A DNA stretch of 64,000 bases from Naegleria gruberi (lineage: Eukaryota): the NCBI GenBank assembly GCA_000004985.1, contig GG738848.1. One strand, written 5' to 3'. Below, in pieces: positions 12,417-47,783 of the stretch. A program made the translations under genes and the position numbers. Numbering within the stretch: the stretch's first letter is position 1; every line of letters starts with the position of its first letter. The notes below the pieces were generated by a model that was not told the origin of the DNA, searched no databases, and saw only the letters and a program-made list of their open reading frames with translations.

Positions 12417-13847
12417 TCACTTCACATTGAGACAACAAGTAGTTTTACAAATACCCCTTATCTCTACCCTAATAGTTGAAATATCACTCTTAACTTCTTT
12501 AATTTCATAATTCATAATGTTACTCTCACTTTTAATATTATGGATATCAGTTTGCATGTTATCAATATCAGTTTTCATATTGCTAATATCATTCTTCATA
12601 CTTTTGATATCAGTCTTCACCTTAGTAATATCAGTCTTCATACTATCCACGTTATTATTAATTTTTTTGATATCATTCTTCATATTGTTGATATCTGTCT
12701 TCATATTGTTGATATCTGTCTTCATATTGTTGATGTCAGTCCTCACAGTGTTGATATCATTCTTCATATTGTGGACATCATTCTTAATATTATTAATATC
12801 GGACTTCATGCTATCAATATTAGTATTAAATTCAGACTTGGTCATGATTTCGTTTCGTATTTTCCTTAGTTCCTCCATAACATCTGCTAGGGACAAATTA
12901 CCACTTTTCACTTGTTCTCCCATTTTTTTCTTGTTAGAAACCTCAGCAACACCATCAGTTAATTTCTCTCCCTCAAGAATGATTTCCATCTCTGATTCAG
13001 CTAGAATGATTTCATCGGAAGCATTGTTATTGTCTTCATTCATTGAATGAGCAATAGAAGTATTCAGCTCTGTTTCTTCCATTACCATAACTTCATTGAT
13101 GTTTTCTTGATTAATAATATCGGGAGTTTCTTCCATTACATTAATTTGATTATTATCATCAGATGTGATAGGAGGATTTCTAATCTCTGGTTCTTCGTTC
13201 AGGTCAAACATAATTACATTTTGGGTATTAAGAGTAAAGCTATTAATATTAGCATTATTCTCCATCTCTGATTCAGTTAGAATAATTTCATCGGAAGCTT
13301 TGATATCCTCTTCTTTCTTGGAATGGGTGTTGGAATTAAGAGTGCTGCTATTCATACTTGATTCAGTTCTAGACTTTGATTTCTTAGAACGAGGCTTCTT
13401 TGTTGATTTGGCTTTCCTTGGAGCAACCATTTCAACAAAATCCTTCATCATTTGCAATAGTTCTTTCTCTCCAGAAAGGTGGGTGATTTCATGGAGAAAG
13501 TTGTACTTTAACTTGCTCTCATCATTCAATGGCTTGAGGAAATTACGAAATTCAGTCTTATCAATGTGATGGAAACTAAAATCATCCAACATGCTACAAA
13601 TAACATTCAAGAATGCCTCCTTGCTTCTCAATAAAACCCAAACTCCATTAGATTTCAATAAGAAGATAGGATGGTTCTTGTTCGCTAAATTATTCATGAA
13701 TTTTTCGAGTGGAAACTCGTTGAAATCATAACCCTTAACCAACACTCTGATTAGAGCAGGTGGAATGAAATCTCCAGTATCTCTATCTTTACTAACAAGA
13801 GTTTTGATAATGAGTTTCTTATCTTTATCAGAAGGCTGTGAATGCAT
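12417..13847 (-). CDS. Hypothetical protein (476 aa) with an acidic middle region and a C-terminal array of tandem heptad repeats (xDIxNMK), probably coiled-coil.
   Basis: ORF from the track. C-terminus reads NDVHNMKNDINTVRTDINNMKTDINNMKTDINNMKNDIKKINNNVDSMKTDITKVKTDIKSMKNDISNMKTDIDNMQTDIHNIK, encoded by 21-bp DNA repeats. Confidence 0.55.
   Translation of the reverse strand: MHSQPSDKDKKLIIKTLVSKDRDTGDFIPPALIRVLVKGYDFNEFPLEKFMNNLANKNHPIFLLKSNGVWVLLRSKEAFLNVICSMLDDFSFHHIDKTEFRNFLKPLNDESKLKYNFLHEITHLSGEKELLQMMKDFVEMVAPRKAKSTKKPRSKKSKSRTESSMNSSTLNSNTHSKKEEDIKASDEIILTESEMENNANINSFTLNTQNVIMFDLNEEPEIRNPPITSDDNNQINVMEETPDIINQENINEVMVMEETELNTSIAHSMNEDNNNASDEIILAESEMEIILEGEKLTDGVAEVSNKKKMGEQVKSGNLSLADVMEELRKIRNEIMTKSEFNTNIDSMKSDINNIKNDVHNMKNDINTVRTDINNMKTDINNMKTDINNMKNDIKKINNNVDSMKTDITKVKTDIKSMKNDISNMKTDIDNMQTDIHNIKSESNIMNYEIKEVKSDISTIRVEIRGICKTTCCLNVK
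12540..12830. repeat. Tandem 21-bp coding repeats (about 13 units) that encode the heptad array of the 12417..13847 gene.
   Basis: Repeated ttcatattgttgatatctgtc-like units are visible directly. They also produce spurious plus-strand ORFs (12517..13050, 12540..12869). Confidence 0.7.
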
Positions 13848-14294: not shown

Positions 14295-15015
14295 CTAAAA
14301 CAACAATAATTGTTTCATTTCACTTATGTATTTGGATCCTTTATCACTAATTTCATTGTCAGAAATATTAAGTGATGTTAATTGTTTCATTTCACTTATG
14401 AATTTGGCTCCTTCATCACCAATTTCATTGTTATATATATCAAGTGATATCAATTGTTTCATTTCACTTATGAATTTGGCACCTTCATCACTAATTCGAT
14501 TTACACTAATATTAAGTGATGTTAATTGTTTCATTTCACTTATGTATTTAGCTCCCTCATCACTAATTTGATTGTAATAAATATCAAGTGATGTTAATTG
14601 TTTCATTTCACGTATTAATTTGAGTTGGTCTAAAGAGTCAAACAAATTTCCAGAAACTTTAAGATTAACAATACTATTCATGATTATCAACTTGAGTAAA
14701 TACAGCGAATTTGACACCTGACACATTTTCCAATGACTTGTGACTCTTACAGCTGCAGATTTAACACTTTCAGCAACTGCAAATGATAAATCTCCAGCAC
14801 TATATCTTGCCTCAGTCAATGAAAAGAATGATTTACGAAACAAGCTTGTCATTCCTTCCTTTTCTCACAATCGAATAAAACTTATTTCTCAAAGCATCTG
14901 ATTTCTTTCTAAGCATCGATTGACCACGTTTAGCACTATTCAAACGATTCTCCATTAATTGTAAGGTCATTCTATTCGGAACAACAGCCAATCTATTATT
15001 AATAGTAGCAGACAT
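14295..15015 (-). pseudogene. Chimeric / fragmentary locus. A V-type ATPase subunit D (VMA8-like) N-terminal fragment of about 115 aa is frameshifted once and then fused in frame to F-box/LRR-family repeats (5 LRR units), with no V-ATPase D C-terminal half.
   Basis: ORF 14833..15015 = MSATINNRLAVVPNRMTLQLMENRLNSAKRGQSMLRKKSDALRNKFYSIVRKG, matching the V-ATPase D N-terminus (FPTRMTL..MK.KLKGA.KGHSLLKKKSDAL..RFR). ORF 14295..14852 begins MTSLFRKSFFSLTEARYSAGDLSFAVAESVKSAAVRVTS, matching V-ATPase D (MQTAAFSLAEVSYATGENIGYQVQESVSTARFKVRA). It then switches to LKLIIMNSIVNLKVS...ISEMKQLTSLDIY..., which is identical in style to the 34999 and 43446 LRR genes. There is a +1 frame change between the two ORFs at about 14850. 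Confidence 0.55.
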
Positions 15016-32584: not shown

Positions 32585-34603
32585 ATGATAGCAAACAAGT
32601 ACTATTCTCTTATTCATCATGGGCTATTCCTCTTGTTTACATTATTATTGTTGCGTTTCAATATAAATCAAGTCGACTGCCAAACATCAAATAATTATTT
32701 AATGACATTACCGATACATGCAAACGAACCACAATGTTTAATTAAACCAGATGGTGATCCGGTTTTATTTGAATGGAATTTAAATTGTTCAAATGTCACT
32801 TGTAATAATTTATCTATACATTTATCGAAAATGACAGCTACCTATTGTTTGGTGATTCAATTATTTTCAGATGAGGATTGGATGTTTGTAAATGTCAGCC
32901 AAACTGAGAATTTCAAAATATTTACCAATCATCGACTGCCTGACAATGTCAGATTTCGACTTTTTTGTTATTTTCAAGATATGGGAGAGTTGGATTTTGA
33001 CATTGAGCCGACAAGGATCTTCTTGACCAGAAATGGATCTGAAGTGATGAAGAATTGCTCAGATGGTCAAGTAAATGAAAAATTGGATGAAATGATTAGT
33101 GACAGTTATTGGAATTTCACACGACGAAAACAATTTCAACAATATTTCATGAAAATTACTGAACTGAATGTGGAGATACCTCTAAGAATTGATAATTTGA
33201 CGAATTTACAAATGCATGTCATGCCTATTGACATTTATGGTTATCCTGAAAATGTTGGAATGATTTTCACAGGATCCTATTATGTTATTCCACTTTTTAC
33301 AAATTATTCAACGCAGACATCACCCTACTGGGAATCTCAATGCAATGATTTAACTTACAATACTCGATCTCAATACTATATATGGAAATTAATTGCCATT
33401 TCAATAGGTGCTTTGGAATTTTCAATTATTCTCATTCTACTCTTCTATAGAAGGAAGCACATTATTCTAGAGAGTCGATTTATCATTCCACACTTCTCCA
33501 CCTGCATGTATATCTTGCAGTGTGTTGTAAATATCATATTGAATGTAATTTATTATGATCCTAAATGGGATACCATGATTGAAGAGCTAGTTCTCATCAT
33601 TGTCATGTCATTGCATCTGTTACAGGGGTGTAGATACTATGCTTCTCGATTATTCTATTCGAGATTCTATTCGAAAAGAGATGGCTTAATGATGAAGATT
33701 CTCCTTTCGAAAATTCCATTTCTAATAGCCATTGTAACAGTTGTCTTGTTGGAGGGAGGAATTGTGACAGCTCTCATTATTAAGGTACCCATTACTGAGA
33801 TTTCAACATTCTACGATAGTATTTCCATTGTTTGTGGAGTGAGTTATATGATTCTACTTGGAATTGGTTTACTAGCTCACTTTATTTCACATTTCAAATT
33901 TGTTAGAAAGTTGAGGAAACCGAAACAAATTATGAAATGGTTCTTTTTATATGATGATGCATTTGGATATAATGGGGAGTTTTTAGTGTTTGTGATTATT
34001 TGGATTTTAGCGGGAATTCATTTTGTAATTTCTGAAATTTGTGGAGATTATTTGACAATTTCCTTATATGACGAAACTAGACCTTTATCTAAAAAGTATT
34101 TGAATAATGGATTTGGATATGCACTGTATGGGATTACTAAAATAATGTCGACAATGGGATTTGGATTGCAATATTTATTTTTAATTACAATGACATTTGT
34201 CAAGAAACGAAAGTTTGATAAATCTGACTTTCGACACCAAAAGGATGAGATGGACATGTTCATTTCCAAGATATTTAACGATGGAAGTATTTGTGTTGAA
34301 ATTCTGAAACGATTTCTCATGGCAGAATTCAAATTAGAATTATTAGAAATCTACCTATTCCTCACAGAGAATCCAAAATCAACACTGATGAATCTCGTTA
34401 AACAACATCCTCAGAATTACTTTGCCATTATTCGATACTTTAAGAAATCCAATCTGGAGAGTGAGTATCAAATCTGCTATCGAGAATCTACCGAATTATT
34501 ACTAGAAGTTTTTACCAGATTGAAACAGACAGTTGTCTATGAAGAGGAATATGTGAAAAAGATGGCAGAAGAAATGCAATTCGTATTGGATACCATTAAA
34601 TAA
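32585..34603 (+). CDS. Seven-transmembrane receptor-like protein (672 aa) with a signal peptide, a Cys/N-glycosylation-rich ectodomain of about 250 aa, 7 predicted TM helices, and a cytoplasmic tail of about 130 aa.
   Basis: Hydrophobic segments LIAISIGALEFSIILILLFY, FSTCMYILQCVVNIILNVIYY, LVLIIVMSLHLLQGCRYY, IPFLIAIVTVVLLEGGIVTALII, ISIVCGVSYMILLGIGLLAHFISHF, FLVFVIIWILAGIHFVISEICG, and LYGITKIMSTMGFGLQYLFLITMTFV. Confidence 0.55.
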   Translation: MIANKYYSLIHHGLFLLFTLLLLRFNINQVDCQTSNNYLMTLPIHANEPQCLIKPDGDPVLFEWNLNCSNVTCNNLSIHLSKMTATYCLVIQLFSDEDWMFVNVSQTENFKIFTNHRLPDNVRFRLFCYFQDMGELDFDIEPTRIFLTRNGSEVMKNCSDGQVNEKLDEMISDSYWNFTRRKQFQQYFMKITELNVEIPLRIDNLTNLQMHVMPIDIYGYPENVGMIFTGSYYVIPLFTNYSTQTSPYWESQCNDLTYNTRSQYYIWKLIAISIGALEFSIILILLFYRRKHIILESRFIIPHFSTCMYILQCVVNIILNVIYYDPKWDTMIEELVLIIVMSLHLLQGCRYYASRLFYSRFYSKRDGLMMKILLSKIPFLIAIVTVVLLEGGIVTALIIKVPITEISTFYDSISIVCGVSYMILLGIGLLAHFISHFKFVRKLRKPKQIMKWFFLYDDAFGYNGEFLVFVIIWILAGIHFVISEICGDYLTISLYDETRPLSKKYLNNGFGYALYGITKIMSTMGFGLQYLFLITMTFVKKRKFDKSDFRHQKDEMDMFISKIFNDGSICVEILKRFLMAEFKLELLEIYLFLTENPKSTLMNLVKQHPQNYFAIIRYFKKSNLESEYQICYRESTELLLEVFTRLKQTVVYEEEYVKKMAEEMQFVLDTIK

Positions 34604-34998
34604 TAACTTGTTCCATTATATTTCAATTAAGCTTTTGTTGAATTCAATCACTAATCCTGAGATTCGCCAATGGTGCTTTGATTGAGTTTAGTTTAAAATG
34701 GTTAAAAAAAGACTACAGCACCACAGGTTCCCAAGTTGTCTCCAACCTCAGTACTGATGTGGCTCGACGATACTTAACTTCTCAAATCGGACGGGATGAG
34801 GTGCATTCATCGTTAATTATTTCAATGTAGTTCGAGCCATTTCCTATCTATAAATCTTAATCTTGAATAAGAAAATGATCTGGACTTACAACAGCTCAAC
34901 ACTGGTTTTTGGCTCATTGCTATAAAACGTACTTAAATATAGTTTAATAATTTTTATGAAGAATGCGTTGTTACAATTTTTATGATATTTAAAAAAAA

Positions 34999-36240
34999 AT
35001 GAGCAAACGAAAAAGACAAGATTTTGAAAATCATCATCGCTTAATTAATTCGGAGGAAATATTCACTAACAATTTTAATAATAATATGGAAGAGAAAGCA
35101 AAAAAGAGTGTGAAATTCCAACAAGAAGAAATATTTTCAGATGATGTTTGTTTTGAAATAATCTCCATGATTGATGATTCATGGTTTATTTTAAATAATT
35201 GTTGTTTAATTTCAAAACAATTCTTTAATGTGATCAAGGAACGTTCAAAACTTGTTATTCAATTTAACAAAAAATTTACAGAGAAACGAGTTGAATTATG
35301 CATGAAAAGTCAATTCATGAATAGTATTGTTAATCTTAAAGTTTCTCGTTGGTTGCTTGACTCTGTAGACCAACTCAAATTCATAAGTGAAATGAAACAA
35401 TTAACATCACTCGATATATATAGCAATCGAATTGGTGTAGAAGGAGTTAAATATATAAGTGAAATGAAACAATTAACATCACTTAATATTTCTGAAATTG
35501 AAATTAGTGATGAAGGAGCCAAATATATAAGTGAAATGAAACAATTAACATCACTTTATATACATAATAACGAAATTGGTGATGAAGGATCCAAACACAT
35601 AAGTGAAATGAAACAATTAACATCACTTAATATTGGTTGTAATGAAATTAGTGATGAAGGAGCTAAACATATAAGTGAAATGAACCAATTGATATCGCTT
35701 AGTATTGGTTACAATCGAATTGGTGATGAAGGATTCAAATATATAAGTGAAATGAAACAATTAACATCACTCGATATTACTGACGATGAAATTGGTGATG
35801 AAGGAGCTAAATATATCAGTGAAATGAAACAATTAACATCACTAAATATTGGTTTTAATGAAATTGGTGATGAAGGAGCCAAATACATCAGCGAATTGAA
35901 ACAATTAACATCACTTGATATTTCTGAAACTGAAATTAGTGATGAAGGAGCCAAATATATAAGTGAAATGAAACAATTGATATGGCTTACTATTGGTTAT
36001 AATGAAATTAGTGACAAAGGAGCTAAATACATCAGCGAACTGAAACAATTAACATCACTCGATATTACTGACAATAAAATTGGTAATGAAGGAGCCAAAT
36101 ATATAAGTGAAATGAACCAATTGATATCGCTTAATATTGGTTACAATCGAATTGGTGATGAAGGAGCCAAATATATAAGTGAAATGAAACAATTGACATC
36201 ACTAAGACAAATCAGTTTAGGATTTTACTGTAATAATTGA
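34999..36240 (+). CDS. F-box-like plus RNI-type leucine-rich-repeat protein (413 aa) with about 12 tandem 24-aa LRRs (xISEMKQLTSLDISxNxIGDEGAKY).
   Basis: The N-terminus FSDDVCFEIISMIDDSWFILNNCCLISKQFFNV is F-box-like. It is followed by near-identical 72-bp repeat units. A paralog of 43446 and of the 14295 fragment. Confidence 0.75.
   Translation: MSKRKRQDFENHHRLINSEEIFTNNFNNNMEEKAKKSVKFQQEEIFSDDVCFEIISMIDDSWFILNNCCLISKQFFNVIKERSKLVIQFNKKFTEKRVELCMKSQFMNSIVNLKVSRWLLDSVDQLKFISEMKQLTSLDIYSNRIGVEGVKYISEMKQLTSLNISEIEISDEGAKYISEMKQLTSLYIHNNEIGDEGSKHISEMKQLTSLNIGCNEISDEGAKHISEMNQLISLSIGYNRIGDEGFKYISEMKQLTSLDITDDEIGDEGAKYISEMKQLTSLNIGFNEIGDEGAKYISELKQLTSLDISETEISDEGAKYISEMKQLIWLTIGYNEISDKGAKYISELKQLTSLDITDNKIGNEGAKYISEMNQLISLNIGYNRIGDEGAKYISEMKQLTSLRQISLGFYCNN
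35335..36220. repeat. Tandem 72-bp coding repeat array (LRR units) inside the 34999 gene.
   Basis: Repeated gaaatgaaacaattaacatcact...ggtgatgaaggagccaaatatataagt units. They generate spurious antisense ORFs (35310..35522, 35709..35954). Confidence 0.75.
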
Positions 36241-36378
36241 TAACCCAAATGTTAAAAGTTTGCATATGGTTGGGTGGGCTTAATAACAAGAAATAGTATT
36301 GGCTTAATGGAATGAGGTGCATTCATCATGATAAAGCCGTAGCCATTTCATACCTTAAAATAATAATCAGTAATTAAA

Positions 36379-38280
36379 TTAAACTTTATAGAGAACTTCC
36401 TTAATGTCAACATGTTGATGTTGTTTACAATTATCGTATAGTGTTTTGAAAATCTTGTGTTTCTCAATTGCAATATCGAAATTCTTCTTTTGAGCTCGAC
36501 TGATTGCTTCCTTCAGTCCAGTATCAATCATGGTTGCAAATTTCTTCCTGGCCATATCCCATCCAATACTTGTGGCCATAATTCCACTCAGATTAATCAT
36601 TCTAAAATCAATATATCTCGTACTATTATTATCAATCTTTTGTAATAACCTAGCTCCAATCATTGGCAATCTTGTTCTAGAATCTCCACTATCGTATGAT
36701 TTCATCAATAGGAGACATTCTGTTATTTCACCACCAACGAATGATGCCTGACTTGAGAGTACCATGTCGAGGGCTCGTTTAGGGAATAAAGAAATCTCAA
36801 AATCTGATGAAAGAGTGGCAATTGAATATTTCTGTTGTGAGCTAGTCATGTTAATGGGCTCACTCTGGTTGAAGGTCACATTCTTCAACACTGACGATAA
36901 GTGATCATCAGTGTGTAGTGCCTTGACACATTCCTCCAGAGAATTCTCCAATTTACCAACCATTTTAAAAGTCTTTGATTCCAAATGTCCAACTGTATAA
37001 TCTGCCTTTGTGGACCATTGCATTAATTTTCCTCGATTCTTAATAGTTGGATACCAATCTGGAGAAAATTCCTTAGTGAGATAATTAATGGCCTTCCAAT
37101 CTGAATCAATTACAAATTTTACACTCAAATCCTCGGCTGAGAATCGATGGTCCTTCTCTGCATGCTTGAATAAATCTCTCTTCTTTAACAGAATGTGAAG
37201 GGCAGAGGAGGGCAATTTCTTTGGTTCCAGATTCGTCTTGATCCACTTGTTAATGAATTTTTCTTCATCCACCTGGAAAATATTAAACCAATCCTCCAAA
37301 TCATGCAAAAACATTTGAATAATGATTTGAATCTCATCCAACATTCCAATACCAATCAATTTATCATTTGGATCAGTATGGAGTGGAATTTCAATGTTTT
37401 TCGAATAGCATTCGTGTTGTTTCTTTAAAAAACTTTCCAATCTTTCATGTGAAAACAATTTTGCAGTTCTATTCTTTAAATGCATGATTAAACTTGTCAG
37501 GAAATGGAAAGGATTGCCTTCTCCTCCAGTATTTATACTAATTTCTATATTACTTGTAGGAATTTCCAATTCTAACAATAAATCTCTGCAAAATTCATCA
37601 ATCATTTCCATTACCACTTGTCGTGATGTGACAGTTGACTTGATTTTCAATGAACTTGCATCCATAAACTTGATAAGAAACAACACCTTAGCTCTAGCTT
37701 CTAGTTCATACTCAAAACTTTGCAAATATTTGAAAAATTGTTCTCGCATTTCTTCTAACGGAGGTAAATGTTTGAATTCTCCATAAGATTTTGAAGATTT
37801 TGAAGATTTTGTTGATTTTGTTGATTTTGCTGTGGAACTTCCATGGGAATGTGCTGAATTAGTTGATAAATTATCATCGGGAAGGTATTGGTCGTGATGG
37901 TTGTGATGGTGTCCATCAGAAAGTGCACTGGTTGACAATGGACTCGAGCTGATGGGATGATGGTTGGCAGTTCTGTCAAAATCATCGACTCCTTCAATAT
38001 TTATCTTGATTTGCTCTTCACTACTAGTAGAAAATGTAAAATCTGCATGTAAACTATAGGATTTAAAGTGTGAGCCTTGTCCATTCGAATAGGAGCCATC
38101 AAATAAACTAGACGAAACAGGAGAAGTTGACAAGAATGAAGTAGACGAAACCGGAGAACTTCCACCTGCAAAATGTGATGGAGAAAGACCCCTCGGTGAA
38201 TGTTGTGAACCATTCAAAGATGACAATCCTTTGTGTGAATCCACAACCGCTAGAAAATTGACAGGTAATTGTACTGACAT
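36379..38280 (-). CDS. Hypothetical protein (633 aa) with a Ser-rich N-terminal region and a C-terminal START-like lipid-binding domain (tentative).
   Basis: The C-terminal 200 aa (SDWKAINYLTKEFSPDW...FPKRALDMVLSSQASFVGGEI...RLPMIGARLLQKIDNNSTRYIDFRMINLSGIM) follow the START-domain pattern (..RDFV..R......G........R.....S....G). His-rich tract HHHNHHDQ. Confidence 0.4.
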   Translation of the reverse strand: MSVQLPVNFLAVVDSHKGLSSLNGSQHSPRGLSPSHFAGGSSPVSSTSFLSTSPVSSSLFDGSYSNGQGSHFKSYSLHADFTFSTSSEEQIKINIEGVDDFDRTANHHPISSSPLSTSALSDGHHHNHHDQYLPDDNLSTNSAHSHGSSTAKSTKSTKSSKSSKSYGEFKHLPPLEEMREQFFKYLQSFEYELEARAKVLFLIKFMDASSLKIKSTVTSRQVVMEMIDEFCRDLLLELEIPTSNIEISINTGGEGNPFHFLTSLIMHLKNRTAKLFSHERLESFLKKQHECYSKNIEIPLHTDPNDKLIGIGMLDEIQIIIQMFLHDLEDWFNIFQVDEEKFINKWIKTNLEPKKLPSSALHILLKKRDLFKHAEKDHRFSAEDLSVKFVIDSDWKAINYLTKEFSPDWYPTIKNRGKLMQWSTKADYTVGHLESKTFKMVGKLENSLEECVKALHTDDHLSSVLKNVTFNQSEPINMTSSQQKYSIATLSSDFEISLFPKRALDMVLSSQASFVGGEITECLLLMKSYDSGDSRTRLPMIGARLLQKIDNNSTRYIDFRMINLSGIMATSIGWDMARKKFATMIDTGLKEAISRAQKKNFDIAIEKHKIFKTLYDNCKQHQHVDIKEVLYKV

Positions 38281-38803
38281 TTTTTTTTGAATAATTACTG
38301 ACAGTTATTCAACGGAAACAACCCAAAATGCAAGTAAATAACAAGGGCAATCCTTCAGTTTTGTAATTTCTTCAAATTTCGTTTTCAAACTAGGAAGAAT
38401 TGGTTTCCAAAATGTTTACAAATTTTTTGAGAATCGTTGCCATAAAAAATTTTAACAAAAATCTGAAAAATTTTGTTGTTTATCAATTAATTTTAGTATT
38501 AATTGCACTCGCGTGAGAAGATGATTCACTCAATCGATATTATTATTAAGGTGCAATTCTTACAGAGATCTTTAGTTTGTTTTTATGTTTATGTTTCGTT
38601 TCAATGAAGATGGAATGACTGGAACAATCTTTGAATTGTGGAACAAGTTACTTTGATTTCGAATATTAGACAGTTCAGTAAGTGGTGTGCCTTAGATTTT
38701 TGTCTGTGATTCATGAACTTGGTTTCAAAGTTATGTCAACGTCAAGTGTCTAATCAAAAAAAATACTTCAGTTGCTCCTTCATAATATTCATAATAAAAA
38801 AAC

Positions 38804-39158
38804 ATGGGCAATAAACTCATCATATCCCAGTCGGGTTCGTTCTCTCTGGATTCATCTACTTCATCTCTGCAAGCTTTCTATCAACAACCACTTGGCCGAA
38901 ACTTGAGACGAAACTCGACCGAAATACAAGCATCTCCTTCATCTCCAACAAAAAGAACGTCATCAAAGGGACCACTCAGTGCTGGATCAACATCCCTGAA
39001 TGATGTAGTATTCGAAAGATCTTCCTCACCAACTACAAACCCTCAGGATTATAACATTTTATTAGACGAAAGTTCAGAACCTGTAAAGAAGAGAATGAAC
39101 GTCATCATGTTAGGAACAGGAGGAAGTGCCAAAACCACAGTTTTAAAACAATTCAAAT
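38804..39158 (+). CDS. Heterotrimeric G-protein alpha subunit (divergent), exon 1, with an N-terminal MGxxxS myristoylation-type start and a Ser-rich extension of about 95 aa.
   Basis: MGNKLIISQ...KRMNVIMLGTGGSAKTTVLKQFK contains the G1 / P-loop box (GAGESGKST-like). Donor T|GTAAGT. Confidence 0.7.
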
Positions 39159-39288
39159 GTAAGTATTATTCCTTTTCTTTACAAGGTAATAATTTAAATT
39201 ATTTTACAAAATATTTAACATGTTTAATATAATTATAATATATTTAAAAAAATATTTACAAACAAAAAATCAATATCATTGAAAATAG

Positions 39289-39765
39289 TATTGGGAGGTA
39301 AAAGAGAAGATCTTACACAATCACTCTGGCAAGAAGGAATTGTCGTTCCATGTTTCGATTTGTTGATTGCCATTTTCAATCGAAAGAATTTCTATTATCC
39401 AAATGCAGAATATCATCACGAAGAATCTGATGAAGTTGAACAGCAAGTATTCGATCTGTTCGATCAAAAGAAGATTCTCAACATTATTCATCCGAATAAT
39501 CAGAAATTGATTGAGGAAATTGCTGAAATGTGGAACAATGAACCAATTTTGAGAAAGGTCTGTACGGAAATGCTTTTGGAAAATCAAGTGGAATCGGTTC
39601 CGGTTGAGGATGTGAATTATTATTTTTCCAGAGCTGTTGCAGTTCATCGGGGAGATAAACCATCGGATAAGGATTTGTTAATTTCACAAAGAAAGACAAC
39701 TGGTGTTACACATGTTGAATTTGCATTTAATAATGGTTCTACTTTGGTTAATATTTGGGATTGTG
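39289..39765 (+). CDS. G-protein alpha subunit, exon 2 (helical-domain region and switch I), after a 130-nt intron (39159..39288).
   Basis: Contains RKTTGVTHVEF (switch I, RxxTxGI-like) and ends WDCG|GTAAGT. Confidence 0.65.
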
Positions 39766-39832
39766 GTAAGTGAAATCATATTTTTGATTGTAAAATGTGA
39801 AATTTTGTGTAAATTTATGAATAATAATATAG

Positions 39833-40422
39833 GTGGTCAGAAAAATGAAAGAAAGAAGTGGAAATACATGTTTACCGAATCTCAAAAGTTAACAGGAAAG
39901 ATCTTTGTCATTTATTTCGTAGCTCTTTCAGAATATAATCAATTGTGCTACGAAGACGAAACCACCAACCGAACTCACGAATCTTTGAAAATTTTCGAGA
40001 GTGTTGCCAATAATCCAGAGTATGAGAATTATCCTCTCTTCCTCATCTTTACAAAGAAGGACATTTTCAAACAAAAATTGAGATATACCAGTTTATCTGT
40101 CTGTTTTGAAGATTGTCCAGAAGATTTGAAAGCTAACGAAGACACTACCAAGATAAAGAGAGATATCATTAACAATTGGACTGGATTTTTAGAGGATAGA
40201 CAATGTGTCTCTGATGAAATTTATGAAAAATCATTTGATTTTGTCAAGAGAAAATTTATGGAGCGAATTTCCAATGCCGATCGCAGAAAACAAACTGAAA
40301 AGAATATCAAGGTTGTGAATGCAATGGATGCTGATGATGTGAGAAGTAATCTTGTTGAAGAATTATTGGAACAAACAATGGTGGAAGAAATATATAAGGA
40401 TGATTTGGTTCATTATCTTTAA
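39833..40422 (+). CDS. G-protein alpha subunit, exon 3 (switch II to C-terminus), after a 67-nt intron (39766..39832).
   Basis: The splice restores the G3 box DCGGQKNERKKWKYMF (DVGGQRSERKKWIHCF consensus). Then FLIFTKKDIF (NKxD-like FLNKKD) and NAMDAD (TCATDT position). Stop TAA at 40420-40422. Confidence 0.75.
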
Positions 40423-40426
40423 AATT

Positions 40427-40448
40427 CTCGTCATTCAATAAAAGTTAA
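40427..40448. repeat. Target-site duplication, copy 1 (ctcgtcattcaataaaagttaa).
   Basis: An identical 22-mer sits at 41620..41641. The sequences diverge immediately outside both copies. Confidence 0.75.
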
Positions 40449-41619
40449 ATTGTAATATTTATTAACGTCTCTTGTATCGTAAAGACCTGAGAGACGAGGT
40501 CTACAACCAGTAAGTTTCGGTTCAGCGTTTAAGTGTTATGGGTTGACGCTAAGTGGTTGGTTAGACTGAGCCTGCCTGTGGTAGGCAGAGAGGTATTTCC
40601 TGTTAATAGTGAAGCTTGCATTGGGACGGTTGTACCACACTGAGTTCTTGTAGCAATTTTCCAAATAAATAGCTAGTGCTTTGTAGACTTCTAGGGCCAC
40701 ATTCTTAGGTATTCTTTTGCGCTTAGACCAGTTAAGCCAGTCATTACGGGAGCAACGACCATCAAATTCTATCCTAAGTTGAGAGGATTCTGAGATATCA
40801 GGAGGGAAACGAATCTTGTTAAGGCTAAATTTCTGGGAGATAGCGTCCCATGTGGCATACAGTTCATCCTTTTCAGGATTGCATTTGGGACAAGTTTGGA
40901 ATACGTGGGTCCAATCTTCCTTGACATTACATTTGTCACAAATACTGTCGTTACCTAGTAAAATTGAGTGGTGGAGATTAAAGTAGAGGAGTCTTTGCTG
41001 ATAATAAGACAAGAGAGAGTTTCTCCAGAAGGAGAGAGTGCTATTATGCCAATTATAGTCATTGTCTAATTGGCCCAACTTATTAATAATTTTCTTGGAT
41101 CGCTGAGTTTCAATGATAGCATTTCTAAGGTTGGAGACAGGCTTGTGATTGGTACGGTTACACAAGACCCATCCATTATCTGTGGATTTGAAGTAATATT
41201 TCAGATCTTTCATTGTAGCGGCAGCATTTTTCCACAGTGAATCTGTAGTTTCACCCTTGAGCGCCTTATTTATCATGGCTCTTGCGATTTTGGGTGATAG
41301 GAGAGGTAGAATTGACAAACCTACAGACAGATGCCATCCTTTCCACGTGACTTATATCAACTGGAGATGAAAGTCCAAGTCCACCCTGGGATTTATCACC
41401 ATATATAACGGCTTTAGAGAGCCTGTTGTCACATCCAATTCTTTTCTTAATAATTCCACTAATTTTGACTTCCAATTTTTCCAATAGTGAAAGTGGAATA
41501 GCATCTACGCTTGAGAGGTATCTAGGTACAGAAAGCACCTTAGATAATATTACGTTCCTCATTGGACCGAAACAACTTTTAAGAGAACCTTATCATCGGA
41601 GGGAGACCAAGACATGTTA
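40449..41619 (-). mobile_element. 5'-truncated non-LTR (LINE) retrotransposon fragment (1171 bp) on the minus strand, holding the C-terminal part of ORF2 (RT thumb / zf-RVT region) in two frames. It is GC-richer than the flanks and has no poly(A) tail.
   Basis: ORF 41266..41562 (...AVIYGDKSQGGLGLSSPVDISHVERMASV...) and ORF 40536..41318 (...CDKCNVKEDWTHVFQTCPKC...) match the conserved ...GGLG... and CxxC..E.W.H.F..C zinc-binding motifs downstream of LINE RT domains. The fragment is flanked by a perfect 22-bp direct duplication. Confidence 0.75.
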
Positions 41620-41641
41620 CTCGTCATTCAATAAAAGTTAA
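41620..41641. repeat. Target-site duplication, copy 2 (ctcgtcattcaataaaagttaa).
   Basis: Identical to 40427..40448. It brackets the 1171-bp LINE fragment. Confidence 0.75.
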
Positions 41642-42051
41642 TATTTCTCAGAGCTGCAAGACTTGTTGTGCTGTTTATTTAAAAATCTCAATTTTTCCCT
41701 AATGACGGCATTTACCCCTGAACGGCAAAAAACAACCAACCTGAGCAAAAAAAAAATGAATTTAGGTCCTACTTTGACACAAATCATCTACCACATTTCA
41801 TCAGAATCACACAGCTAAACAACAGGGTTGGTGTTTTTCATAAATTGTACCCTGTATTTAACTATTAAGTTTTATTAAATTCGGGAGTTGATTTTTCGAA
41901 AAAAGAATAGAGGGCGGCTACTTTTGAAAAACAACTACCTCATTCCGAAAAACAACAGACCACCAAAATTCAATTCCTAAATGGCTAACACACCATAGCA
42001 CACAAATTTGGTTTATTCAATTTTTAGAATTGTCACACTCATCACACCAAT

Positions 42052-42282
42052 TTACAAGTCACAAACACTATTCAACTTCAATTCGACTCTTCTCTTTTTC
42101 CAAGCTGAACTCAAATAGTCTTTGATCTTGTCCTTGATTTCACTGAAGAGACACCCATTTTGAAAAGTCAAGCAAATATCCTCTACCAACTGAATGTCAA
42201 GGTGTTCTCCTTCATTGATTTTATCTGAAATAACAACCTCTTCAAATCTAATCTTGGCTCCAACACCATCTACAGAAAGCAC
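42052..42282 (-). CDS. Small ORF (76 aa) of unknown function, possibly the last exon of an unresolved gene.
   Basis: Protein-like, non-repetitive translation (...EDICLTFQNGCLFSEIKDKIKDYLSSAW...). No canonical ATG; the track start is a non-ATG codon. Confidence 0.2.
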   Translation of the reverse strand: MLSVDGVGAKIRFEEVVISDKINEGEHLDIQLVEDICLTFQNGCLFSEIKDKIKDYLSSAWKKRRVELKLNSVCDL

Positions 42283-43445
42283 TTTTATTGGGAAAGAAGA
42301 ATTTCTAAATTAAGAAGTCTATCATTTATGAAACATTAAAAATGAATCAACAAGACGTTAAGAAGAAAAACATTCAATACACAAAAACATACAGAGAACG
42401 AAAACGTATCAAGAAGGTTGTAAAAGAGACTATGAAGATATTAGCAAAAATGTAACAAAGGAACAATTATTAACTGGAAATTTGAAATTGGAAATAGATG
42501 AATCAAATTTGAAATCTGGACAACAAGAAGTAATTTTTCATGAGCAAGTGAGTTTCAGTTTTGGAGAATTGGGAGGATTTGATTTAAATGACAATAGTAG
42601 TAGTATTGTTGACGAATCAACAATGTATAAGGGGTAGGCGGTGAATGTTGTTACAGCAATAACAATTATTCTCTTTATTATTGTATTTTGCGAGATTGCA
42701 ACATCAAAGATTGGATTGTTATTGAAATTATTAGGAGAATTGCTTTCCAAAGATCATTTATTATGTAAAACTAAAGATGCTCTGTTGAAATATGTGCTCA
42801 ACTTTGGCAAAATGGCAAAGGTATTTAATTCTACGACTAATCGATAAGAATCATGTAAGTATTTAAATTAATTAATTTATTGATATCTTTAGGATTTCCG
42901 TATTAATACATCCCTTTCAGATTTGGTGGTCAAGACTGTTTCAGGGAACATTGCTAGTGTCAAATCAATGGATTTTTCACTTAAATCAATCTCAATATGC
43001 TTTTACTAGCAGTGGAAAGTAAGTGGTTTCATGGCTAAATTGCAACTAATATTTTAGAAGTGTAATAATCACAAGTTTTATTGAGAAGAACAATACTGTA
43101 TTTGCTATTTTGGATAATTATGTGGATGGGAAATTTACTCACACTTTCACGGAGCCAATTACTAACCTCAAAGACCTCACATTTTCATTTGTTGATTCAT
43201 TTGGTCTTGGTCATTTTTCCAACCATTCCATTCTGCTAAGTTGACTCTTAATAAAAGTTTAGGTTATGATTGTAAAAAATTCAAGTCCTCAATTTATTGC
43301 AAATCAACCCCTCACTTTTTCAAAAAGCCAGGTCTGGATTTGATAAAAACCACTGTTCAGATAGTGGTACCTGATTTTACCCCTCGATTTTTTGCAAACT
43401 ACCACTTATTTCCGTCATTAGGGAATTTTGATATTTTAGAAAAAA

Positions 43446-44672
43446 ATGAGCAAACGAAATAGACAAGATTTTGAAAATTATCATCAATTTATTAATTCGG
43501 AGGAAATATTCACTAACAATTTTAATATTATGGAAGAGAAGGCAAAAAAGAGTGTGAAATTCCAACAAGAAATATTTTCAGATGATGTTTGTTTTGAAAT
43601 AATTTCCATGATTGATGATTCATGGTTTATTTTAAATAATTGTTGTTTAATTTCAAAACAATTCTTTAATGTGATCAAGGAACGTTCAAAACTTGTTATT
43701 CAATTTAACAAAAAATTTACAAAGAAACGAGTTCAATTATTCATGAAAAGTCAATTCATGAATAGTATTGTTAATCTTAAAGTTTCTCGCCGGTTACTTG
43801 ACTCTTTAGAACAACCCAAATTCATAAGTGAAATGAAACAATTAACATCACTTAATATTTCTGACAATCAAATTGGCTTAGAAGGAGCCAAATACATCAG
43901 TGAAATGACACAATTAACATCACTTGATATTAGTGTAAATCGAATTGGTGTTGAAGGAGCTAAATTCATAAGTGAAATGAAACAATTAACATCACTTGAT
44001 ATTAGTGTAAATCGAATTGGTGTTGAAGGAGTTAAATTCATAAGCGAAATGAAACAATTAACATCACTTGATATTTCTGACAATCAAATTGGCTTAGAAG
44101 GATCCAAATACATCAGTGAAATGACACAATTAACATCACTTGATATTAGTGTAAATCGAATTGGTGTTGAAGGAGCTAAATTCATAAGTGAAATGAAACA
44201 ATTAACATCACTTAATATTAGTGTAAATCGAATTGGTGTTGAAGGAGTTAAATTCATAAGTGAAATGAAACAATTAACATCACTTGATATTTCTGACAAT
44301 CAAATTGGCTTAGGAGCCAAATACATAAGTGAAATGACACAATTAACATCACTTGATATTTCTGTAAATCGAATTGGTGATGAAGGAGCTAAATTCATAA
44401 GTGAAATGAAACAATTAACATCACTTGATATTTGTGACAATCAAATTGGTGTTGAAGGAGCCAAATTCATAAGCGAAATGACACAATTAACATCACTTGT
44501 TATTACTAGCAATCGAATTGGTGTTGAAGGAGCTAAATTCATAAGTGAAATGAAACAATTAACATCACTTGATATTTCTGGCAATCGAATTGGTGATGAA
44601 GGAGTTAAATTCATAAGTGAAATGAAACAATTAACATCACTTAATATTAGTGTAAATCGAATTGGTGGATGA
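43446..44672 (+). CDS. F-box-like plus RNI-type LRR protein, intact part (408 aa), paralog of 34999. About 12 near-identical 24-aa LRR units.
   Basis: The N-terminal 100 aa are almost identical to the 34999 gene (MSKRNRQDFENYHQFINSEEIFTNNF...CFEIISMIDDSWFILNNCCLISKQFFNVIKERSKLVIQFNKKFT). The repeats read ISEMKQLTSLDISVNRIGVEGAKF. Confidence 0.7.
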   Translation: MSKRNRQDFENYHQFINSEEIFTNNFNIMEEKAKKSVKFQQEIFSDDVCFEIISMIDDSWFILNNCCLISKQFFNVIKERSKLVIQFNKKFTKKRVQLFMKSQFMNSIVNLKVSRRLLDSLEQPKFISEMKQLTSLNISDNQIGLEGAKYISEMTQLTSLDISVNRIGVEGAKFISEMKQLTSLDISVNRIGVEGVKFISEMKQLTSLDISDNQIGLEGSKYISEMTQLTSLDISVNRIGVEGAKFISEMKQLTSLNISVNRIGVEGVKFISEMKQLTSLDISDNQIGLGAKYISEMTQLTSLDISVNRIGDEGAKFISEMKQLTSLDICDNQIGVEGAKFISEMTQLTSLVITSNRIGVEGAKFISEMKQLTSLDISGNRIGDEGVKFISEMKQLTSLNISVNRIGG

Positions 44673-45140
44673 AGGAGTTAAATTCATAAGTGAAATGAAA
44701 CAATTAACATCACTTAATATTTCTGACAATCAAATTGGCGTAGAAGGAGCCAAATACCTCAGTGAAATGACACAATTAACATCACTTGATATTTCTGACA
44801 ATCAAATTGGCTTAGAAGGAGCCAAATACATAAGTGAAATGAAACAATTAACATCACTTGATATTTCTGCAATCGAATTGGTGATGAAGGAGCTAAATTC
44901 ATAAGCGAAATGAAACAATTAACATCACTTAATATTAGTGTAAATCGAATTGGTGGAGAAGGAGCCAAATACATCAGTGAAATGAAACAATTAACATCAC
45001 TTAATATTATGACAATCGAAATTGGTGACAAGGAGCCAAATACATAAGTGAAATGAAACAATTAACATCACTTCATATTACTAGCAATCAAATTGGCGTA
45101 GAAGGAGCCAAATACATAAGTGAAATGAAACAATTATTGT
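44650..45140 (+). pseudogene. Degenerating 3' continuation of the 43446 LRR gene: about 7 more LRR units interrupted by at least three single-base indels (frameshifts).
   Basis: ggtggatgaagg versus canonical ggtgatgaagg (+1 at about 44668). tctgcaatcg versus tctggcaatcg (-1 at about 44868). A further indel lies near 45005-45030 (aatattatgacaatcgaaattggtgacaaggagcc). The LRR reading frame hops between ORFs 43446, 44662, and later frames. Confidence 0.6.
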
Positions 45141-45671
45141 AGTTTAATAAAACTATTTTTTGATTGATTGAGATGGAAAATAATAGATTTAATAGAATCG
45201 ATCCATATCTAGAAACCTCATTGAACTGAGCTTGAAACTTTGGCTTTGATTTCTTTTGTTTCATTAAGCTTAGAAATAGTTTTTTCAAATTGCTTCTTTT
45301 ACCTTCTTGAATCATCCCTTGGTTGGATGTCATTACAGGGAGTGCCTTAGCAATCACCTTATCGGTATTACCTAGTTGGCATCAGTGGCGATGGCATCGA
45401 TAGGTTTAATTAAATTTGAAAGTGGTTGAATTTTCCTTACAATTTCGACCTCTAGATTTGTTTATCCAGGGCTATCATCCTCGTTCTAAGAAATCAAAGT
45501 TTAGATGAACAGCCAAGCATAATATCAATTTTTACAAAATATGAAACTTGCCAATTTCGAAGGAATGGGTATTCTGATAATCTTCTATCTAGAATGAACC
45601 AATGACAAGAAAATACCTATTTATTGTTTCAATTAAACCAACATTAAACCAACTACTGGTTTGCAACTCAT

Positions 45672-47783
45672 TCAGGGAGGAACCAGAGTTGTTTGAGAAT
45701 GAACACTTGGAAATATAACATGCCACAAATATTTAAAGTCCAAAAAGAGAGTTTTCCAATTTAGAAGCATATTTTGAAATCGAATATTGTTGAGAAAGAC
45801 ATATGAATCCGTTTCACATGCCTCCAAACTGTGTGATATGAAATATTTCAGTAGAGGTGAAATTACGTATCGTGTGAATAGATTTGAAATATTTTGAGGA
45901 CGAAAGACTGCCTCTGCCAAGTAATCCACAAACCAAACATAGGAATAGGTATAGTGAAAGACAAGTTGAAGATTTCTACTAAACGTAAAGTTGAATGTGT
46001 AGGGAAGTGGATGTACGTGCTTTTGTCGATTCTTCTTCTTTTCCAATCGAGAAGCAACCAATGATTCATGCAATGCTAAACAAGATTCACACACCAGTGC
46101 AATTCCTCTTCCATAGTAAGGATTAAGTGAGGCAACAGCATCACCCAGAGCGAGGAATCCCTCTACAATTGATTTCTTACCTCTCTTATTGGTAAGAGAA
46201 GGCAAAGTATCCCAATGATTGAACAAGACATAATCTCTCCTGTAAATACTCCAATCCATAACTGGTGGTTCTCCCTCTCCCACAAACTTGGTAAAACACT
46301 CCTCACATACTTTGAAAGCACTTGGAATTTCTTGCTTGATGAATTGGAGAACTGCATCTTTGGATTTTAGGTTTTTGGCCTTTTCAAATGTTCCCAATTT
46401 ACTGACAATAAACATGGCAAGATTATTTTCAATTCTATAGACCATTACTCGTTCAGTTTTGGGAAATTCATTACTATAGACCGTTAGCCATTGAGGTTTC
46501 TTTTCTCTCATGTAGAAACCCTCAGAGAGACATTCTGGCTTGATCTTGAATATTGCCATTACGTTTGTGATTTGAGACTTCTTTTTGGTTTTCTTCATTG
46601 GTTTGGCACGGTGATCAATTTCTGCCACCTCATTCAAAATCCACTCTGGTGTCTTGGTATAAACACCACTGCAATCAATGACCAAGCTGGCATCAAGTGT
46701 GCTTGTCTTTCCATCTATTGAAGGATGTCCACCTATGGCATCAAACTTGTTCTCTCCACTAATCTGTACTCCTACAGCTCTGTGAACGATATTTCCCAAA
46801 TATGTGGGTGAATTAGATTGTTGTTGAGAGCTCGAACTCGATGTATCTGAAATGGTATTATGATCTGGAATTTCACTATACGTTGCAGAGAAAATCTTCT
46901 TGGTAATACTGTCATATGAACTAAAGTGTTCCTCATGATATCGTTCCCAGAGAATATCCTTCACCTCTGTCTTTTCCAATACTATAATATTTTTCAAGTT
47001 TTTTACATAATCTCTGAGCCAACTTTCCAAAAAGGTCCTCGACATCATAATCATGTTGGGAAAGTTCAATAAATTAAGTGGTACTCTCGGTTTACCATTT
47101 GTTCTATAATCAGCCATATCAATACTCAATTCAAAGGCACCTTCTTCGACCATACTCTCAGTGAATGATTTTTCATTCTTGGTCAATAACTTGTCTAACA
47201 ATTGGATACATTTCATCAATAGGATATGAGTCTGATGTCCGTGAGCCACCATCGTATGCCCAGGAACCATCTCCTTCTGTTCCACAATATAAACCTGATC
47301 AAAGTGATGTGAGAGAACACACCCAGACAACAACCCAGATATAGAACCACCAATAATTACACAACTTTTACCAGCTTTGGGTATGTGCTTCTTTTCCAAT
47401 TGTTCAATTTCCTTCTCCAATGTCAAATCAGAGTGTTGCTTAATCTCCAAGAATGGAACTATAAACTTTTTAAATAACTTTACAATAATCGCCTTTAAAA
47501 TAAATACTAGAATAAAAATAAATAAATAATACACCAATAAGTCAATACTATTACAAGATATATTTGAGGATTTGCAAAAATCTTCCTTCCAATCCCTCAC
47601 TCGATCCTTATAAATCACAGTTTGATTCATCACCAAATGTGTCCAATTCTTTAAAGTTTCCCAATCATTCCGATGTTGTTGTTGATGATTCGTATGTTTT
47701 ATCTGATGTTGATTATGATGACTATTCATCACTGATGATGATGATGCCTGTGATGATGGATTACTCCTCAAACTTCCCGTCAT
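45672..47783 (-). CDS. FAD-dependent oxidoreductase / monooxygenase-like protein (703 aa) with an N-terminal His/Gln-rich region and a TM segment.
   Basis: Dinucleotide-binding motif KSCVIIGGSISGLLSGCVL...VYIVEQ (GxGxxG) and a downstream LGDAVASLNPYYGRGIA motif (GDAAh..P..G.G type of FAD hydroxylases / geranylgeranyl-reductase family). Confidence 0.6.
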   Translation of the reverse strand: MTGSLRSNPSSQASSSSVMNSHHNQHQIKHTNHQQQHRNDWETLKNWTHLVMNQTVIYKDRVRDWKEDFCKSSNISCNSIDLLVYYLFIFILVFILKAIIVKLFKKFIVPFLEIKQHSDLTLEKEIEQLEKKHIPKAGKSCVIIGGSISGLLSGCVLSHHFDQVYIVEQKEMVPGHTMVAHGHQTHILLMKCIQLLDKLLTKNEKSFTESMVEEGAFELSIDMADYRTNGKPRVPLNLLNFPNMIMMSRTFLESWLRDYVKNLKNIIVLEKTEVKDILWERYHEEHFSSYDSITKKIFSATYSEIPDHNTISDTSSSSSQQQSNSPTYLGNIVHRAVGVQISGENKFDAIGGHPSIDGKTSTLDASLVIDCSGVYTKTPEWILNEVAEIDHRAKPMKKTKKKSQITNVMAIFKIKPECLSEGFYMREKKPQWLTVYSNEFPKTERVMVYRIENNLAMFIVSKLGTFEKAKNLKSKDAVLQFIKQEIPSAFKVCEECFTKFVGEGEPPVMDWSIYRRDYVLFNHWDTLPSLTNKRGKKSIVEGFLALGDAVASLNPYYGRGIALVCESCLALHESLVASRLEKKKNRQKHVHPLPYTFNFTFSRNLQLVFHYTYSYVWFVDYLAEAVFRPQNISNLFTRYVISPLLKYFISHSLEACETDSYVFLNNIRFQNMLLNWKTLFLDFKYLWHVIFPSVHSQTTLVPP

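Follow-up and report, generated by a model that had tools for sequence, protein, structure and literature searches.

The stretch of DNA analysed here, a window of 64,000 nucleotides from contig GG738848.1 of the Naegleria gruberi assembly GCA_000004985.1, carries two paralogous genes with arrays of leucine-rich repeats (LRR), called copy A and copy B, and a truncated third copy, fragment C (Table 1). They are read as members of a Naegleria-restricted F-box-like/LRR family whose products would serve, like FBXL proteins, as substrate receptors of the Skp1-cullin-F-box (SCF) ubiquitin ligase, with a putative Skp1 step; the probability of this whole picture is estimated at about 65%. According to this reading, the protein would be built from a disordered N-terminus, a diverged three-helix motif derived from the F-box, two cap repeats and a solenoid of 24-residue LRRs. 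The head would dock on Skp1 within the SCF ligase, and the LRR surface would pick the substrate in the fashion of FBXL-type receptors. The family would evolve by birth and death, A and B having only the coding region in common, and each array would have been rebuilt separately by unequal crossing-over of whole units or of multi-unit blocks (216 bp in B). Amino-acid change would fall mainly on the exposed x residues of the xxLxLxx strand and on the loop after it. Finally, a +1 frameshift would have cut copy B to a protein of 408 aa with 11-12 repeats, while its untranslated distal units gather more insertions and deletions (indels). The existence of a local paralog pair with an additional fragment, proposed in a preliminary description made from the sequence alone, was borne out by Tandem Repeats Finder and by a self-BLAST of the window.

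Table 1. Positions, in the 64,000-nt window, of the three F-box-like/LRR copies, their parts and the adjoining V-type ATPase piece (ORF, open reading frame).
Feature	Position	Strand	Description
Copy A	34999-36240	+	intact 413-aa ORF: F-box-like head, LRR array, unique tail
Copy A, F-box-like core	35128-35244	+	aa 44-82, EIFSDDVCFEIISMIDDSWFILNNCCLISKQFFNVIKER; three short helices predicted
Copy A, LRR array	35380-36203	+	11 full 72-bp (24-aa) units and 1 partial unit, in frame
Copy B, whole	43446-~45148	+	125-aa head, 18 units, partial terminal unit
Copy B, open part	43446-44672	+	408-aa ORF: 125-aa head, 11 units, stop inside unit 12
Copy B, full LRR array	43821-45145	+	18 units and partial terminal unit; 216-bp (3-unit) higher-order repeat
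Copy B, out-of-frame tail	44673-45145	+	end of unit 12 to unit 19; four indels
Fragment C	14298-14683	-	5'-truncated copy: last 71 nt (~24 aa) of head, 4 units and a partial unit
V-type ATPase subunit D fragment	14684-15015	-	N-terminal ~aa 5-96, frameshifted; abuts fragment C; PF01813 E 4.4e-06

The assignment of the head to the F-box rests on its relatives and on the fold of the whole chain. A profile of the window heads, searched against 1.84 billion proteins, retrieved only 20 cluster representatives, which marks the head domain as lineage-restricted; the family found in this way is confined to Naegleria and close relatives. Among the matches are P0126 (E 2e-14), P0017 (E 8.7e-09) and P0023 (E 1.7e-06), all of which clear the curated F-box cut-offs of Pfam. 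In the alignment of 36 family heads, PF00646 (F-box) was detected in 24 and PF12937 (F-box-like) likewise in 24 sequences, always on the same segment, and it is with this segment that aa 44-82 of copy A align. The motif common to the relatives can be written as (F/L)(S/P)DD(V/I)C(F/Y)EI(I/L)S(F/M)(L/I)D...C.L(I/V)SKQ(W/F), some of them having the canonical FPDD...SKQW, and the three-helix motif of the window family as FSDDVCFEIIS...C.LISKQFFNVIKE. When the family profile was compared with the sequences of the PDB, the F-box of FBXO42 was the sole match, with a weak E value of 0.021.

The structure of copy A was modelled with AlphaFold (AF2) at a mean predicted local distance difference test (pLDDT) value of 88.4 and a predicted template-modelling score (pTM) of 0.84. 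In the model, residues 1-41 are disordered and are followed by helices at 48-56, 61-68 and 73-82, two irregular cap repeats and a regular solenoid. The best whole-chain template-modelling (TM) scores were obtained with FBXL2 (0.72, 407 columns) and FBXL17 (0.71), both of which were solved with SKP1. The head is quite probably an F-box derivative in which L-P and W have been changed to F-S and F. The earlier designation as F-box/LRR proteins thus stands by way of the relatives and the FBXL2/FBXL17 fold match, although the F-box is undetectable in the window sequences themselves, and the architecture appears to be the F-box/LRR one that is typical of SCF substrate receptors.

Copy A consists of a 127-aa head and its repeats, all in register, and closes with a C-terminal tail unique to this copy, RQISLGFYCNN (12 residues). 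Tandem Repeats Finder reported a period of 72 at 35376-36203 (11.5 copies, 80% matches, score 991) and, for copy B, at 43816-45136 (18.4 copies, 86% matches, 1% indels, score 1812); the array of copy B was also reported with a period of 216 and 90% matches. Both copies matched Pfam LRR_6, with E values of 9e-53 for A and 1e-55 for B. An exact look-up in the annotated N. gruberi proteome was negative for both of them, and the best database match to copy A is a different paralog with 78% identity. The reference annotation therefore appears to miss both plausible F-box-like/LRR genes (34999-36240 and 43446-44672).

The repeats had been assigned to the ribonuclease-inhibitor (RI) class, an assignment that had to be given up. 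RI-type LRR units have 28 or 29 residues, and the alternation of these two lengths is absent from the window, where the units have uniformly 24 residues: a length of exactly 72 bp was found for each of the 11 full units of A and for 13 of the 18 in B, and the five B units that deviate all carry indels. The match to Pfam LRR_6 is common to GALA and cysteine-containing (CC) types as well. The GALA-type LRR, which belongs to the CC-LRR subfamily, is defined by Ile5, Gly6 and Asp7 ('Igd'), Gly/Ala9, Ala10 and apolar residues at 13, 19, 22 and 24 (PMC2244805). The unit of the window, N-x-I-G-D-E-G-A-K-Y-I-S-E-M-K-Q-L-T-S-L-D-I-S-x, agrees with this consensus, and a similarity in structure to solved GALA LRR domains was found. 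The window repeats are 24-residue repeats of the GALA/CC type and not of the classical RI type.

Within the unit, fifteen scaffold codons are nearly invariant at the protein level, with a ratio of nonsynonymous to synonymous change (omega) of 0.04-0.12. With the five codons that vary most (unit positions 12, 14, 15, 17 and 20), a set picked post hoc, omega reaches 2-2.9. For the a-priori set of exposed x positions of xxLxLxx (9, 10, 12, 14 and 15), the proportion of nonsynonymous differences (pN) is 0.333 and that of synonymous differences (pS) 0.155, which corresponds to an omega of 2.5 compared to 0.31 for the remainder of the unit; the pN of this set is in the top 1% among all 42,504 possible five-codon sets. 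Variability is accordingly concentrated at exposed positions of the repeat. Contacts of the strand face and its neighbouring loop with ligands would produce such a pattern, which is suggestive only, since the comparison is made between repeats within proteins.

In the self-BLAST, 34980-35385 corresponds to 43426-43826 with 93.6% identity over 407 nt (E 2e-176). At the protein level, the two heads share 90% identity. The shared N-terminal domain of about 100 aa in the preliminary description was thus recovered with this identity, with its length revised to 125-127 aa. The similarity sets in 19 nt 5' of the ATG and does not extend beyond the array, the flanking sequences being unrelated. The copies are separated by three unrelated loci, namely a hypothetical protein, a G-protein alpha-subunit (G-alpha) gene and a region with short, uncharacterised ORFs. 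No further copies could be found in the window, either by self-BLAST or by the unit cores (30 on the plus and 4 on the minus strand). The units of copy A are on average 82% identical to one another (69-94%) and those of copy B 88% (78-100%); when units of A are compared with units of B, the mean is 82%. The description of the units as nearly identical is thus adequate for B and overstated for A.

Copy B shows a clear periodicity at a lag of three units: units B1-3 are 96, 100 and 99% identical to B4-6, and B13 is 99% identical to B1. Its array has thus grown recently, by tandem duplication of 216-bp blocks. The synonymous divergence (dS) at scaffold codons is 0.40 within A and 0.09 within B, and array A is the older of the two. 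In the matrix of unit identities of A against B there is no diagonal (maximum 92%), and the unit types SVNRIGVEG, SDNQIGLEG and EMTQL are specific for B and absent from A. Both observations indicate an independent turnover of the two arrays beside heads that have kept an identity of 94%, and they favour unequal crossing-over inside each array over conversion between the arrays. For the head, whose similarity is restricted to the coding region, a conversion or an unusually exact duplication is possible. Where recent tandem expansion or gene conversion had been proposed, it is the expansion that was confirmed, in the form of the 216-bp blocks of B; there was no sign of ongoing conversion between the arrays.

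The indels of copy B were placed by aligning units of odd length to their closest in-frame neighbours. At 44312, a deletion of 3 bp removes a codon from one unit in frame. At 44667, an additional G gives rise to the TGA at 44670-44672 that ends the ORF, and further single-base indels follow at 44869 (-1) and at 45007, 45018 and 45028 (-1, +1 and -1); this agrees with the single-base indels that had been noted at approximately 44668, 44868 and 45010. All five frameshifting indels lie within the last 481 of 1703 bp (P=0.0018 under uniform placement). Such clustering is consistent with an initial truncating mutation, after which the untranslated distal units decayed neutrally. No frameshift is present in the 792 bp of array A or in the initial 846 bp (first 12 units) of array B. 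The ancestral stop codon was probably the TAG at 45140-45142 (YISEMKQLL*), to judge from the indel-free reading of ~565 aa. A rescue of the frameshifts by introns was considered and rejected, because the register of the repeats continues through the indels, each of which affects one base in an otherwise aligned unit.

Codons 1-408 of copy B are open. Of the differences between the heads of A and B, 12.5 are nonsynonymous and 4.5 synonymous. Codons 33-92 are free of nonsynonymous change, for which the chance is ~4e-4 by simple binomial arithmetic. Since the 408 codons are open and the F-box-like core is without amino-acid change relative to A, copy B is more aptly called a shortened, possibly still functional gene with a decaying 3' end than a plain decaying copy. 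The term used previously applies to the last six units only. The disruption of the frame or truncation in comparison to intact paralogs by which pseudogenes are recognised was found for the distal part of copy B and for fragment C.

Shortened genes also occur elsewhere in the family. In the close subfamily, several of the annotated N. gruberi proteins have only 215-305 aa and stop abruptly; the C-terminus of P0007, ...IITIVLVMKE, is the frameshifted reading of a unit. In the ENA metagenome assembly ERZ929261, P0011 (contig L001, 2086-2877) consists of a head and four LRR units and then passes straight into the ATG of the next gene, for which a weak match to amino-acid transporters was obtained. 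Truncation therefore looks common in the family, consistent with birth-and-death evolution. Contig k127_104191 (L002) of the same assembly is 98.8% identical to 36222-38534 of the window and breaks off at the edge of the repeat array, 19 nt into copy A from its 3' side; to judge from this identity, the sample contained a strain very close to the N. gruberi analysed here. Neither the head alignment nor a 24-nt unit core had a match in a scan of JGI metagenome contigs, and no description of a Naegleria F-box/LRR family was found in a literature search.

Several results weigh against the F-box-like receptor reading. The heads of A and B gave no Pfam F-box match at E<=10, nor did aa 40-127 of copy A alone at E<=1, and within the close subfamily the sole F-box signal is that of P0010 (E 0.07). 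The F-box hallmarks L-P and W are replaced by F-S and F in the window heads, and the head modelled alone (low confidence, pTM 0.48) had no significant fold match in the PDB. Furthermore, the unit-versus-unit dN/dS compares paralogous repeats within proteins and is not a formal test of positive selection, and the clustered indels of copy B could instead mark a poorly assembled stretch. The proteins might be plain LRR scaffolds without SCF recruitment, for example cytoskeletal or axonemal LRR proteins or binders like RanGAP and RI, with a head that no longer is or never was a working F-box. This is considered somewhat unlikely, as the segment in question is the best-conserved part of the family with zero nonsynonymous change between A and B, relatives clear the Pfam F-box cut-offs on the homologous segment, and FBXL2 and FBXL17, with SKP1, head the whole-chain TM-scores. 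A really intact copy B of ~565 aa and 18 repeats, whose five indels and perhaps unit count would be due to assembly errors or mixed haplotypes, is unlikely. The indels do crowd into 360 bp of the most repetitive DNA of the window, where three-unit blocks that are up to 100% identical make mis-assembly or a mixing of haplotypes plausible, and in the independent short-read assembly of the strain with 98.8% identity, the contig stops precisely at the border of array A, from which it follows that such arrays are hard to assemble. However, the insertion at 44667 is located outside any homopolymer run, the window is free of N runs, and array A and the early part of array B have no frameshift. In addition, the other long ORFs nearby are all uninterrupted, among them those of 672, 633 and 703 aa, two of which equal deposited proteins exactly, and family members elsewhere also finish in truncated or frameshifted units (P0007, and P0011 with its four units only).

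With respect to the origin of the copies, it is possible, though doubtful, that A and B are older duplicates kept alike by a gene conversion that is still going on (concerted evolution), and not products of a recent duplication. Similarity limited to the coding region with wholly unrelated flanks is unexpected for a recent segmental duplication at ~7% synonymous divergence, and three unrelated loci separate the copies. Against this stands the lack of one-to-one units between A and B (best 92%), together with the B-specific unit types missing from A, so that any conversion would be confined to the head. A spread of the copies by retroposition, or their transport within a mobile element, would account for the 5' truncation of fragment C, its end point shared with copy B, the confinement of the similarity to the transcribed or coding part, and the retroelement-looking ORFs between A and B. 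It is most improbable nonetheless: the 3' end common to B and C lacks a poly(A) tail behind it, Pfam gave no reverse-transcriptase match for the ORFs at 40536-41562 (-) even at E<=10, and the paralogs of the subfamily are just 65-80% identical, which speaks against a recent burst.

Fragment C was detected by Tandem Repeats Finder with 4.4 copies of period 72 at 14307-14622 and has a Pfam LRR_6 match. Its 3' end is common with that of copy B (45113-45145 in the self-BLAST), and the first ~100 codons of the head are missing; the claim that it shares the whole N-terminal domain with the other copies could not be upheld, as only the stretch given in Table 1 is present. In the adjoining piece of V-type ATPase (V-ATPase) subunit D, aa 5-96 were found by tblastn in two frames only, and a reading by eye possibly extends it to ~aa 110 in a third frame; the C-terminal half was not found by tblastn anywhere in the 64-kb window. 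The chimeric ORF 14295-14852 (-) is carried in the reference annotation as a predicted protein of 185 aa (P0134) on the 712,659-bp scaffold. Both fragment C and the V-ATPase-D piece to which it is joined are dead, the latter presumably being a duplicate of a gene that is intact elsewhere in the genome. A word-indexed search for the intact N. gruberi V-ATPase D gene gave only the chimeric ORF itself.

The window has a G + C content of 29-37%. Directly upstream of copy A, an ORF of 672 aa (32585-34603, +) looks like a multi-pass membrane protein and has no Pfam match; since the protein collection does not contain this exact sequence, the reference gene model is probably a different one. The gene at 36379-38280 (-) matches EFC49432/NAEGRDRAFT_56856 exactly, and that at 45672-47783 (-) matches EFC49434/NAEGRDRAFT_78219 exactly; both proteins are placed on the 712,659-bp scaffold, and the window accordingly belongs to the reference assembly of strain NEG-M. 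The G-alpha gene (38804-40422, +) extends over three ORFs, and a GT..AG intron at ~39766-39833 restores its DxGGQ motif. At 40536-41562 (-), two overlapping ORFs (260 and 98 aa) contain a GGLGL motif and a Cys-rich CDKC...CPKC stretch; by eye they resemble the C-terminal part of a non-LTR retrotransposon ORF, but a Pfam scan at E<=10 gave no family. An ORF of 476 aa at 12417-13847 (-) has heptads of the MKTDINN type, encoded by a 21-bp (7-aa) tandem repeat at 12535-12829 for which periods of 63 and 84 were also reported; its matches to Pfam families of coiled-coil type are below or barely at the threshold.

Among known systems, the FBXL-class receptors FBXL2, FBXL17 and Skp2 are close counterparts. 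They differ from the window proteins in that the window heads match no Pfam F-box model and have L-P/W changed to F-S/F, and in that the window repeats comprise 24 instead of 26 residues and lack conserved cysteines; the identity of the window proteins to FBXL2 and FBXL17 is 17-20%. Ribonuclease inhibitor differs by having no F-box-like head. In plant NLR (nucleotide-binding LRR) and RLP (receptor-like protein) repertoires, and in the F-box expansions of plants and nematodes, local paralogs, changes in unit number, pseudogenes and fast change at xxLxLxx positions occur together. The window family resembles such repertoires in its local paralogs, unequal crossing-over, pseudogenised members and raised amino-acid change at xxLxLxx positions and, unlike the plant NLR/RLP repertoires, is restricted to Naegleria and close relatives. 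The GALA/RipG type III effectors of Ralstonia and LegL1 of Legionella are secreted bacterial effectors, whereas the window genes are eukaryotic and chromosomal. In the Ralstonia GALAs, the selected positions are mostly located on the convex face (PMC2244805); in the window repeats, by contrast, variability is highest on the concave side, where the beta-strand lies, and in the loop after it. It would be a bold and quite improbable extension that Naegleria, a natural host of intracellular bacteria, keeps a rapidly changing repertoire of F-box-like/GALA-LRR receptors that feed bacterial or viral proteins to SCF as a cell-autonomous defence, and that Ralstonia, Legionella and other bacteria associated with amoebae owe their F-box/GALA-LRR effectors to a source close to this eukaryotic family rather than to plant genes.

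The kind of system is already well known, and the window genes are a fairly ordinary example of a rapidly evolving recognition family. They provide a clean small-scale case of LRR array evolution, with duplication of units and three-unit blocks, loss of unit correspondence and shortening by a frameshift. The annotation misses both plausible genes yet includes the dead chimeric fragment, and counts of F-box proteins that are based on Pfam will under-count the family in Naegleria. Given its resemblance to the bacterial GALA effectors, the family is a reasonable eukaryotic comparator for studies of their origin. To the gene content of this model heterolobosean amoeba, the analysis adds a lineage-specific, mostly unannotated family of F-box-like/LRR proteins.

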